Shown in pieces: positions 13,301 to 22,644 of a stretch of DNA of 64,000 nucleotides. Source of the stretch: Escherichia coli (GTDB lineage Bacteria > Pseudomonadota > Gammaproteobacteria > Enterobacterales > Enterobacteriaceae). Positions within the stretch are counted from its first letter, which is position 1. Every line of letters begins with the position of its first letter. Both the position numbers and the translations under genes were made by a program. Under the pieces are notes generated by a model. It did not search any database. It saw nothing but the letters and a program-made list of their open reading frames with translations, and was not told the DNA's origin. Where the stretch lies: NCBI RefSeq assembly GCF_003018115.1, contig NZ_CP027457.1. One strand, 5' to 3'.

Positions 13301-16300
13301 ATGACAGAACAACAAAAATTGACCTTTACTGCCTTGCAGCAGCGGCTGGATTCGCTGATGCTGCGTGACAGGCTGCGTTTTTCTCGCCGTCTGCACGGTG
13401 TGAAGAAGGTTAAAAATCCTGATGCACAACAGGCCATTTTCCAGGAGATGGCGAAAGAGATTGACCAGGCGGTAGGGAAAGTCCTGCTACGTGAAGCGGC
13501 ACGTCCGGAAATCACTTATCCGGACAATTTGCCGGTTAGTCAGAAAAAACAGGACATTCTCGAAGCGATTCGTGATCACCAGGTGGTAATCGTCGCCGGG
13601 GAAACGGGTTCTGGTAAAACGACTCAGTTACCGAAAATCTGTATGGAGCTGGGGCGCGGGATTAAAGGGCTGATCGGCCATACCCAGCCGCGTCGCCTGG
13701 CGGCAAGAACGGTGGCGAACCGTATTGCGGAAGAGCTGAAAACGGAGCCGGGCGGTTGCATCGGTTACAAAGTGCGTTTCAGCGATCACGTAAGTGATAA
13801 CACGATGGTCAAGCTGATGACCGACGGTATCCTGCTGGCGGAGATCCAGCAAGACCGCCTGCTGATGCAGTACGACACCATCATTATTGACGAAGCGCAC
13901 GAACGCAGCCTGAATATCGATTTTCTGCTCGGCTATTTGAAAGAGTTGCTGCCGCGGCGTCCTGACCTAAAAATCATTATCACTTCCGCGACTATCGACC
14001 CGGAACGCTTTTCGCGCCACTTTAATAATGCGCCGATTATTGAAGTCTCCGGTCGGACCTATCCGGTGGAAGTGCGCTATCGCCCGATTGTTGAAGAAGC
14101 CGATGACACCGAGCGCGATCAGTTGCAGGCGATTTTTGACGCCGTAGACGAACTAAGCCAGGAAAGCCCCGGCGACATTCTGATCTTTATGAGCGGCGAG
14201 CGGGAAATTCGCGATACCGCCGATGCGCTGAACAAGCTGAACTTACGCCATACCGAAATCTTGCCGCTTTATGCGCGGCTTTCGAATAGCGAACAGAACC
14301 GCGTGTTCCAGTCGCACAGCGGGCGACGCATTGTGCTGGCGACCAACGTCGCGGAAACCTCGCTGACTGTACCGGGGATTAAATACGTTATCGACCCCGG
14401 TACGGCGCGTATCAGCCGCTACAGCTATCGCACCAAAGTGCAGCGTTTGCCGATTGAGCCCATTTCGCAGGCGTCTGCCAATCAGCGTAAAGGCCGCTGT
14501 GGTCGTGTGTCCGAAGGGATCTGTATTCGTCTCTATTCCGAAGACGATTTCCTTTCGCGCCCGGAGTTTACCGATCCGGAGATTCTGCGTACCAACCTGG
14601 CCTCGGTTATTTTGCAGATGACCGCGCTGGGGTTGGGCGATATCGCCGCGTTCCCGTTTGTAGAAGCACCGGATAAACGCAATATCCAGGATGGCGTGCG
14701 TCTGCTCGAAGAGCTGGGCGCGATCACCACGGATGAACAGGCCAGCGCCTATAAACTGACACCGCTCGGTCGCCAGCTCTCGCAGTTGCCTGTCGACCCA
14801 CGTTTGGCGCGTATGGTGCTGGAAGCGCAAAAACATGGCTGCGTGCGTGAGGCGATGATTATCACGTCCGCGCTCTCCATTCAGGATCCGCGCGAGCGTC
14901 CGATGGATAAACAGCAGGCGTCGGACGAAAAACATCGCCGCTTCCACGACAAAGAATCCGACTTCCTCGCGTTTGTAAATCTGTGGAATTATCTTGGCGA
15001 GCAGCAAAAGGCGCTTTCTTCCAACGCCTTCCGTCGCCTGTGTCGTACCGATTATCTCAACTATCTGCGCGTGGGCGAATGGCAGGATATCTACACTCAG
15101 TTGCGCCAGGTGGTGAAAGAGCTTGGCATTCCGGTTAACAGCGAACCGGCGGAGTATCGCGAAATTCACATCGCCTTACTGACCGGTTTGCTTTCCCATA
15201 TCGGCATGAAAGATGCCGATAAACAAGAATATACCGGCGCACGTAACGCGCGTTTCTCCATCTTCCCCGGTTCTGGTTTATTCAAAAAACCGCCGAAATG
15301 GGTAATGGTGGCGGAACTGGTAGAAACCAGCCGCCTGTGGGGACGTATTGCGGCACGCATCGATCCAGAATGGGTGGAACCCGTCGCTCAGCATTTGATT
15401 AAACGTACCTACAGCGAACCGCACTGGGAACGGGCGCAGGGCGCGGTGATGGCAACGGAAAAAGTCACTGTTTATGGTTTGCCGATTGTTGCCGCGCGCA
15501 AGGTCAACTACAGCCAGATCGATCCGGCGTTATGTCGTGAACTCTTTATTCGCCACGCGCTGGTGGAAGGTGACTGGCAGACGCGTCACGCATTCTTTCG
15601 TGAAAACCTGAAACTGCGTGCCGAAGTGGAAGAGCTGGAACACAAATCACGTCGCCGCGATATTCTGGTGGATGACGAAACGCTGTTTGAGTTCTACGAC
15701 CAGCGCATCAGCCACGATGTAATCTCCGCTCGTCACTTCGACAGCTGGTGGAAAAAAGTCAGCCGCGAAACGCCTGATTTGCTCAACTTTGAAAAGAGCA
15801 TGTTGATCAAAGAAGGGGCGGAAAAAATCAGCAAGCTGGATTATCCGAACTTCTGGCATCAGGGCAATCTCAAGCTGCGTTTGAGCTATCAGTTTGAGCC
15901 AGGCGCGGACGCGGACGGTGTGACCGTACATATTCCGCTGCCGTTACTTAACCAGGTTGAGGAAAACGGGTTTGAATGGCAGATCCCCGGTCTGCGCCGC
16001 GAATTGGTGATTGCTCTGATTAAATCGTTGCCGAAACCGGTACGCCGTAATTTTGTGCCTGCACCAAACTACGCCGAAGCGTTTTTAGGCCGCGTCACAC
16101 CGCTGGAGTTACCGTTGCTCGACAGCCTTGAGCGCGAGTTACGGCGGATGACCGGTGTTACCGTTGACCGCGAAGACTGGCACTGGGATCAGGTGCCCGA
16201 TCACCTGAAAATCACCTTCCGCGTGGTGGATGACAAAAACAAGAAGCTAAAAGAAGGGCGCTCTCTACAAGATCTGAAAGATGCGCTGAAAGGCAAAGTG

Positions 16301-19952: not shown

Positions 19953-20954
19953 TCAGAGTTTAGCGAATTTTTCGAGGGTGCGAATAAGCTGCGTGACGAA
20001 GCCATATTCGTTATCGTACCAGGCGACCGTTTTCACCAGTTGTAAATCGCCCACGGCGGTAATTTCCGTTTGCGTGGCATCAAACACCGAACCGAAATGG
20101 CTGCCAATGATATCGGAAGAGACTATTTCTTCATCGGTATAACCAAATGACTCGTTATTGGTGGTTGCTTGTTTAAGTGCGTTATTCACCTCTTCGGCAG
20201 TCACTTTTTTTCCGAGAATCGATACCAGTTCAGTGACCGAACCTGTTTTCACCGGCACGCGTTGCGCATGACCTTTCAGTTTGCCGCTCAGTTCCGGGAT
20301 CACCAGACCAATGGCTTTTGCCGCGCCCGTAGTGTGGGGGATGATATTTTCTGCCGCTGCGCGTGAAGCACGTAAATCTTTACCACGCGGGCCATCCACC
20401 AGTGACTGGGTGCCAGTATAGGCATGAATGGTCGTCATCGTGCCGACTTCTATCCCGAAACTGTCATGCAAGGCTTTGGCCATCGGCGCAAGGCAGTTAG
20501 TGGTGCATGACGCCACGGAAACAATGGTATCGTTGCCATCCAGAGTGTCGTCATTGACGTTATAAACGATAGTTTTCATTTCACCGGCAGGGGCGGAAAT
20601 CAACACCTTCTTCGCGCCAGCATCGAGATGCGCCTGCGATTTCTCGGCGGAGGTATAAAAGCCAGTACATTCGACAATGATTTCTGCACCTTTCGCTTTC
20701 CACGGAATATTTTTAGCCTCTTTTTCGGCGTAAACCGCGATACTTTTCCCATTAACGATAAGTGAATCTTCCGTAAAATCAACGCTCCAGGGGAACGGTC
20801 CGTAGTTTGAATCATGTTTGAGCAGGTAGGCGAGAATTTTTGGAGAAGTGAGATCATTAATAGCGACAACGTCTATGTTGCTTTTGACTTCAAGTAATCG
20901 ACGCAACACCAGTCGACCGATACGACCAAAACCGTTAATACCAACTTTACTCAT
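19953..20954 (-). CDS. gapC: glyceraldehyde-3-phosphate dehydrogenase C, apparently intact
   Basis: Uninterrupted 333-aa ORF with GAPDH motifs ([18 protein letters not shown]). Confidence 0.85.
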
Positions 20955-21142
20955 GGTTTTCTCCTGTCAGGAACGTTCGGATGAAAATTGATCCTTTCCA
21001 GGCTTAGACCAGGATTGTGGGATGGGCAATCTCCATTCTTACAGTGAAACGTAACGTACTGAAAACGGGTGAACAATATTTAATGAAATTTTGAGAAAAG
21101 CCCGTTATGTTAACGGAAAATTATGTTGAAGCAGGAAATGTT

Positions 21143-21673
21143 ATGGAAAATAAATACTCAAGGTTACAAATCGGCATTCACTGGCTGGTCTTTTTGCTGG
21201 TTATCGCAGCGTATTGCGCAATGGAGTTTCGTGGTTTCTTCCCACGTAGCGAACGGCCGCTCATCAACATGATTCATGTTTCCTGTGGCATCTCAATTCT
21301 CGTGCTGATGGTGGTTCGTCTTTTGTTAAGACTGAAATACCCAACCCCGCCGATTATACCTAAGCCGAAACCGATGATGACGGGACTGGCGCATTTGGGA
21401 CATTTGGTGATTTATCTCCTGTTTATTGCGCTGCCAGTGATTGGTTTGGTGATGATGTATAACCGGGGCAACCCGTGGTTTGCGTTTGGTTTGACGATGC
21501 CTTACGCTTCAGAGGCCAATTTCGAACGGGTAGATAGCTTAAAGTCGTGGCATGAAACGCTGGCGAATCTGGGATATTTTGTCATCGGTTTGCACGCTGC
21601 GGCTGCACTGGCACACCACTATTTCTGGAAGGACAACACACTTCTACGCATGATGCCGCGTAAACGTTCCTGA
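21143..21673 (+). CDS. cybB: cytochrome b561
   Basis: Internal ATG giving MENKYSRLQIGIHWLVFLL..., 176 aa, four TM helices with His ligands. Confidence 0.9.
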   Translation: MENKYSRLQIGIHWLVFLLVIAAYCAMEFRGFFPRSERPLINMIHVSCGISILVLMVVRLLLRLKYPTPPIIPKPKPMMTGLAHLGHLVIYLLFIALPVIGLVMMYNRGNPWFAFGLTMPYASEANFERVDSLKSWHETLANLGYFVIGLHAAAALAHHYFWKDNTLLRMMPRKRS

Positions 21674-21683
21674 AGAATATTTA

Positions 21684-21747
21684 AAGAAAACGCCTGTACT
21701 AAAACCGACCCGTGGTACAGGCGAAGAATACGGGTCTACATCGGAAG
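21684..21747 (-). ncRNA. rydC: RydC small regulatory RNA (Hfq-dependent pseudoknot sRNA)
   Basis: Minus strand reads CTTCCGATGTAGACCCGTATTCTTCGCCTGTACCACGGGTCGGTTTTAGTACAGGCGTTTTCTT (64 nt), which matches my recollection of RydC; lies between cybB and ydcA. Confidence 0.65.
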
Positions 21748-21917
21748 CGCCTATTATATTTATTTGTATGACAAATAAAACCATAATCCTTGCCCATACG
21801 TCTATCTGGCTTATTTTTAATCAATTCACCCGATCTTTGATCTCATCAACGGTATCAAAATAAACCAGCGTATAACGTTCAAATCGAACATAAGATTCGA
21901 TAAACCATGGAGGTTAT

Positions 21918-22162: not shown

Positions 22163-22354
<192 letters not shown>

Positions 22355-22370
<16 letters not shown>

Positions 22371-22420
22371 TCGTTGGCCTCGGTTGATAGAAATATCGGT
22401 CGGGGCCTTCGTCTTTCTGA
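22355..22420 (+). ncRNA. sokB: Sok-type antisense RNA to the mokB translation-initiation region (coordinates approximate)
   Basis: Inferred from the hok/sok architecture, where the antitoxin RNA is antisense to the mok start; ends not verifiable from sequence alone. Confidence 0.3.
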
Positions 22421-22644
22421 TTCCCGGTTAGCCTGAAAACAGAAAGTCTCAGGCACCCGCAGGCATCCTATGAGGTTTCCTTAGGGACGAAAATAATCAC
22501 TTCACGAAATTGCGTGCTGTTTTCCAGAATTTTTCGTCATTCGGGTTAGCCAGTTTAGCCATTCGTTACTCTCTTCATTCCAATAGCATTAATTTTCTCT
22601 GCAATAATTGTTGTAAAAATGTGACGCAAAGAGGTTTTTGGTCA

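Follow-up and report, generated by a model that had tools for sequence, protein, structure and literature searches.

The minus-strand segment at positions 21684–21747 of the window (the whole 64,000-nt stretch of Escherichia coli DNA analyzed here) is RydC, a known and well-studied small RNA (sRNA) in an already known genomic context. We put the probability of the explanation as a whole at about 0.95: a chromosomal rydC gene repressed by YieP and encoding a pseudoknot sRNA, with a terminator that serves rydC only and with cybB transcription reading through it. To establish the identity of the segment, we employed an Rfam covariance-model scan of the whole 64-kb window, which returned RydC (RF00505) at exactly 21684–21747 on the minus strand. 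Positions 1–64 of the 64-position model are all covered, with E = 5.2e-17 and a score of 92.5 bits (gathering score, 48). Only two families reached the gathering score anywhere in the window, RydC among them. Comparison with the annotated rydC of K-12 MG1655 (b4597) revealed 100% identity, base for base. The MG1655 record places the gene at 1491442–1491506 on the minus strand and gives it 65 nt, the extra 3' U corresponding to window position 21683. The rydC gene of the window thus runs from 21747 to 21684 (21683 for the 65-nt form), as defined by the Rfam match, the identity to b4597, and published Term-seq ends. The sequence-only reading had assigned these 64 nt of the minus strand to RydC, starting 11 nt past the cybB stop, and both points were borne out, the last base of the stop being 21673 with 10 bases in between. 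A textbook enterobacterial sRNA was therefore correctly recognized from its letters at base-pair accuracy.

The possibility that the segment resembles RydC by chance, or is a decayed relic lacking function, is effectively ruled out. No support for it was found, and it is countered by an E value of 5e-17 across the full RF00505 model, by a sequence that is the same as the experimentally characterized K-12 gene, by base pairing maintained across homologues, and by the retention of the rydC promoter, operator, and structure across genera. Alignment of the window with MG1655 showed three single-base differences over 281 nt, with none inside rydC; window position 21676, in the gap that separates the cybB stop from the 3' end of rydC, is A, with G in K-12. 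A 401-nt region around rydC is present in 5415 of the 5426 complete E. coli genomes. O169:H41-type strains such as F9792, the automatic annotation of which carries no RydC sRNA, match most closely.

Around rydC, and in the MG1655 gene order, lie aldA, an intact gapC, cybB, ydcA, hokB/mokB, and trg. The gapC gene (19953–20954, minus strand) is an intact frame of 333 codons, which the closest genome annotates as a type I glyceraldehyde-3-phosphate dehydrogenase, and is a pseudogene in K-12 MG1655; this points to an E. coli other than K-12 as the source of the window. The Rfam "sok" model (RF01794) matched 22307–22458 with 111.5 bits on the minus strand, which also carries hokB/mokB, spanning the hok mRNA leader and the start of mokB. 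In the K-12 record, sokB is located on the plus strand at the equivalent of 22360–22416, so the model appears to describe the strand of the hok leader and not the antisense Sok RNA. Two tandem copies of the RF01794 element are present in each of E. whittamii and E. coli E69.

Read on the minus strand, RydC has the sequence CUUCCGAUGU-AGACCCGU-AUUCUU-CGCCUGUAC-C-ACGGGUCG-GUUUUA-GUACAGGCG-UUUUCUU. It can be divided into three parts: a 5' seed, a pseudoknot of two stems, and a 3' U-rich tail. The seed CUUCCGAUGU (RydC nt 1–10, window 21738–21747, minus strand) is single-stranded and pairs with target mRNAs. The first stem of the pseudoknot extends over 21707–21736, with arms at 21730–21736 (nt 12–18) and 21707–21713 (nt 35–41); these form the inverted repeat GACCCGT/ACGGGTC, complementary at 7/7 positions, which is the stem of the Rfam consensus structure. 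The second stem, which is also the terminator hairpin, extends over 21691–21723, with arms at 21715–21723 (nt 25–33) and 21691–21699 (nt 49–57) that form the inverted repeat CGCCTGTAC/GTACAGGCG, complementary at 9/9 positions. The two perfect repeats interleave, and the published pseudoknot of RydC consists of the same two interleaved stems (PMC4337610). The tail UUUUCUU (21684–21690, minus strand) serves as the T-run of the terminator and as the site for the proximal face of Hfq, a role taken from PMC4337610. Hfq is reported to contact the U-tail of RydC and two UU steps (PMC4337610); U23/U24, U46/U47, G37, and G39 are all present in the RydC of the window.

To probe the conservation of this fold, we aligned 10 RydC sequences, comprising the window, six other Escherichia loci, Salmonella enterica arizonae, Citrobacter koseri, and Citrobacter amalonaticus. 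The seed is invariant in all 10 homologues, as are the first 12 nt of the RNA. Standard pairs occupy 98.5% of the pair cells in this alignment, compared with 25–43% in controls in which the partners were slid by 1–3 columns. In stem 2, every cell is paired (100%), and compensatory double changes occur at four of the nine pairs. In stem 1, 96.9% of the cells are paired across homologues; its sequence is nearly invariant and is therefore uninformative on covariation. Single-sequence minimum free energy folding of RydC yielded only the terminator hairpin and was no better than for shuffled sequences (z = -0.48), a value that was not counted against the structure because the folding program cannot model pseudoknots. 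Together, the two interleaved stems would leave approximately the first 10 nt of RydC free as the seed, while stem 2 and the UUUUCUU tail would act as a one-directional intrinsic terminator and an Hfq-binding 3' end.

Two RydC alleles were observed within Escherichia, differing at nt 42–44 and at nt 58. The allele shared by K-12 and the window carries G42, so that stem 1 has a non-standard A11/G42 pair at its base; its tail is GUUUUCUU. The allele of E. whittamii, E1V33, SCPM, and E69 carries U42, which forms an A-U pair and an 8-bp stem 1, and its U-run, GCUUUCUU, is shorter. In E. albertii, U42 occurs together with a tail of the K-12 type, GUUUUCUU.

The 3' end of RydC is defined by a minus-strand terminator with a 9-bp stem (-13.1 kcal/mol) followed by UUUUCUUU, in which seven of eight residues are U. 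In K-12, Term-seq mapped RydC 3' ends to MG1655 1491443 and 1491442 (Adams et al. 2021, PMC7815308), which correspond to window positions 21684 and 21683. With scores of 1.25 and 2.4 million, these ends were classed as primary rydC ends and are among the strongest signals in that study (PMC7815308), indicating that the 64-nt end of the Rfam model and the 65-nt end of the K-12 record are both real. A standard terminator scan with a loop limit of 8 nt did not report this terminator because its loop is 15 nt; terminators were accordingly sought with a hairpin-plus-tail scan that allows loops of up to 20 nt and handles both strands identically.

The literature on the identical K-12 sequence describes RydC as a 64–65-nt, Hfq-dependent, trans-acting sRNA, and the RydC of the window would be expected to behave likewise. 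Expression as an Hfq-bound RNA of approximately 64 nt has been shown for the identical RNA of K-12 and Salmonella (PMC4337610, PMC7815308), the function of the seed has been reported (PMC4337610, PMC6755755), and the pseudoknot fold is needed for the stability of RydC (PMC4337610). The 5' end of RydC pairs with the long 5' untranslated region (UTR) of cfa, masking an RNase E site, counteracting Rho, and raising cyclopropane fatty acid synthase, as supported by genetics (PMC6755755). Other reported targets are yejABEF, csgD, pheA, and trpE (PMC11340327, PMC6755755). In the MG1655 cfa leader, positions -109 to -99 (UCUACGUCGGA) are complementary to RydC nt 3–13 over 11 bp, including one G.U pair. 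Searching this leader with the complement of seed nt 1–10 gave no match at one mismatch or fewer, because the duplex uses nt 3–13 and includes the G.U pair. In the proposed mechanism, pairing of the seed with the long cfa 5' UTR would block both cleavage by RNase E and termination by Rho, thereby yielding more cyclopropane fatty acid synthase.

Analysis of the sequence upstream of rydC identified a -10 hexamer, TATAAT, at 21753–21758 on the minus strand (-11 to -6), in agreement with PMC11340327; inspection of the sequence upstream of this hexamer revealed no recognizable -35 element. The hexamer is directly adjoined by a perfect 9-3-9 palindrome, TTTATTTGT-ATG-ACAAATAAA, at 21759–21779. The GntR-family regulator YieP represses rydC approximately 20-fold, and repression was shown for both K-12 and Salmonella (Bianco et al. 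2024, PMC11340327); the study that reported it mapped no operator. The YieP motif derived from ChIP-exo is atTTGTaTGAcaAAT, and the YieP targets include rydC and ydcA (Nguyen-Vo et al. 2020, PMC7642389). The core of the palindrome, ATTTGTATGACAAAT at 21762–21776 (-15 to -29 of rydC), is an exact match to this motif. ATTTGT-N3-ACAAAT occupies -15 to -29 in each of 11 rydC promoters that we compared, drawn from three genera (Escherichia, Salmonella, and Citrobacter, the last with two species), and further upstream the sequences are unrelated. We therefore propose 21762–21776 as a putative YieP operator on the basis of the motif match, and its position suggests that YieP may repress rydC by occluding the promoter spacer. 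By binding this palindrome, YieP would keep the rydC promoter off. The published motif thus falls exactly on the rydC promoter and is kept across genera, which makes the palindrome a concrete candidate operator. At window position 21772, a C completes the palindrome, and the T of K-12 MG1655 breaks it; window 21748–21795 is matched identically by 3783 of 5415 E. coli genomes (approximately 70%). The palindrome at 21759–21779 was also considered as a plus-strand terminator for cybB and was rejected, as A and T make up nearly all of it, with a single G-C pair in each arm, and ACCAUAAU comes after it.

On the other side of rydC lies cybB, encoding cytochrome b561/superoxide oxidase, at 21143–21673 on the plus strand, with its TGA stop at 21671–21673. 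The gene is supported by the open reading frame list, the annotations of MG1655 and F9792, and PF01292 homologues. Its start is called differently by different gene callers: the mechanical reading frame begins at 21107 (188 aa), the K-12/RefSeq start is 21143 (176 aa), and in the protein collection the 188-aa version makes up a large cluster of 3403 members. The two genes are convergent, and the cybB stop is separated from the 3' end of rydC by 10 nt in the window, 9 nt in MG1655, and 8–10 nt in six other Escherichia loci. The sequence-only reading had claimed both that RydC adjoins and converges with the cybB 3' end and that its terminator may also serve cybB transcripts from the other strand; the former holds, and the latter found no support in the plus-strand sequence, in the terminator scans, or in the published 3' ends.

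In the direction of cybB, the plus strand forms an 11-bp hairpin (-15.8 kcal/mol), followed by AAGAAUAC, in which only one of eight residues is U, and all eight Escherichia loci share this tail. A second plus-strand hairpin is followed by UACAUCGG. A stable hairpin is thus present on both strands, as expected of a bidirectional terminator, but a U-run follows it on the minus strand only (7/8 U versus 1/8 U). Between cybB and ydcA, the terminator scans found nothing terminator-like on the plus strand. Consistently, K-12 Term-seq under three conditions (Adams et al. 2021) recorded no plus-strand end after the hairpin or up to ydcA, and the tables of that study list neither a plus-strand 3' end nor a region of Rho termination at MG1655 coordinates beginning 14914 to 14918. 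The supplements of the SMRT-Cappable-seq work nowhere mention cybB, rydC, or ydcA. The missing plus-strand end is weak evidence, given that Term-seq reports no end below a threshold and that expression of cybB may be low. Taken together, the plus-strand tail, the scans, and the K-12 Term-seq data point to a one-directional terminator that serves rydC only. Transcription of cybB would then most likely read through rydC in the antisense direction and end heterogeneously or further downstream.

The sole plus-strand Term-seq end linked to cybB in K-12 is MG1655 1491416, equivalent to window position 21657, with a low score of 1024. This end is located inside cybB, 14 nt before the stop and upstream of the hairpin; the 3' end of RydC, on the opposite strand, is 26–27 nt away. 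No hairpin or U-run accounts for it, and it may be a product of processing or of polymerase collision.

To compare the ends of cybB across genomes, we gathered homologous loci by anchoring on CybB proteins. We also scanned genome contigs with the pattern CTTCGCCTGNNNCACGGGTC, which recovered seven enterobacterial loci, the other 39 matches being chance matches, mostly in G+C-rich genomes; the pattern is too strict for most RydC variants of Salmonella, Citrobacter, and Klebsiella. Each of the eight Escherichia loci has the 3' end of rydC 8–10 nt past the cybB stop and lacks a separate terminator-like element after cybB. Among 10 non-Escherichia loci, eight carry a hairpin plus T-run after cybB, and rydC is adjacent to cybB in only one, that of C. 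koseri. The 36-nt gap between cybB and rydC in C. koseri contains a canonical cybB terminator (CCCCGCGUAAUGCGGGG-UUUCUUUU). In C. amalonaticus, cybB has its own terminator and is followed by a transporter gene, with rydC 1.6 kb away. A cybB terminator is lacking in C. rodentium and Trabulsiella, and also in S. enterica arizonae, which has an 80-nt gap. Escherichia cybB, having no terminator of its own, must therefore rely on something besides a classical terminator. The difference between Escherichia and the eight of 10 loci elsewhere leaves room for a role of the hairpin in pausing or in collision of RNA polymerases.

Such a role would be played if the stem-2 hairpin paused the polymerase transcribing cybB, so that transcription ended there either intrinsically or by collision with polymerases transcribing rydC. 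The Liu laboratory has reported convergent E. coli gene pairs in which the shared hairpin is weak alone and head-on and trailing polymerase collisions complete termination. A shared terminator of this kind would be in line with the formation of the 11-bp plus-strand hairpin, which starts 18 nt past the cybB stop, and with the distribution of cybB terminators, which in C. koseri precede rydC and in Escherichia are missing. We nevertheless consider it quite improbable. Besides the U-poor tail and the lack of a mapped end past the hairpin, the collision-driven mechanism applies best to highly expressed gene pairs, being reported mostly for these, and strong repression of rydC by YieP under standard conditions would make opposing polymerases rare most of the time. 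Moreover, the absence of a cybB terminator in S. enterica arizonae, despite its 80-nt gap, shows that this absence is not tied to tight adjacency.

Read-through of cybB into rydC, the most likely course under the preferred reading of a rydC-only terminator, could also have a function of its own. The transcript would then include the complete RydC complement in its 3' UTR and act as a cis-antisense sponge or as an RNase III substrate, or transcription from cybB would interfere with that of rydC; in both cases, cybB expression would be coupled to RydC output. The lack of a plus-strand terminator before ydcA, the lack of a mapped Rho region, and the tight spacing kept across the genus Escherichia are all compatible with this proposal, but the reported sponge of RydC is OmrB and not cybB (PMC11340327), and we regard a functional anti-RydC transcript as unlikely. 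A broader statement, that cybB transcription in Escherichia either collides with rydC at the hairpin or runs through it, with the result that CybB expression and the output or activity of RydC are coupled mechanically, is likewise doubtful. If it were true, a superoxide oxidase, CybB, would have its expression tied to a membrane-stress sRNA. Neither the placement of the YieP operator nor the absence of a cybB terminator would surprise a specialist.

Comparison with known systems places the locus of the window firmly alongside the rydC genes of K-12 (b4597) and Salmonella (RF00505), with which it shares the cybB neighbor, the seed, the pseudoknot, the terminator and U-tail, the -10 box, and the YieP motif; its differences from K-12 rydC all lie outside the RNA. 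Like the Hfq-dependent sRNAs SgrS and RybB, RydC combines a free 5' seed with a Rho-independent terminator hairpin and with a U-tail that the proximal face of Hfq binds, but unlike them it uses its terminator stem as one half of a pseudoknot. The convergent arrangement of cybB and rydC resembles that of bidirectional intrinsic terminators such as ynaJ-uspE, in which the genes lie a few bases apart and one hairpin is present in both transcripts. It differs from them in that the cybB side has no U-run, no cybB-strand 3' end is mapped past the hairpin, and one of the two partners, rydC, is normally repressed.
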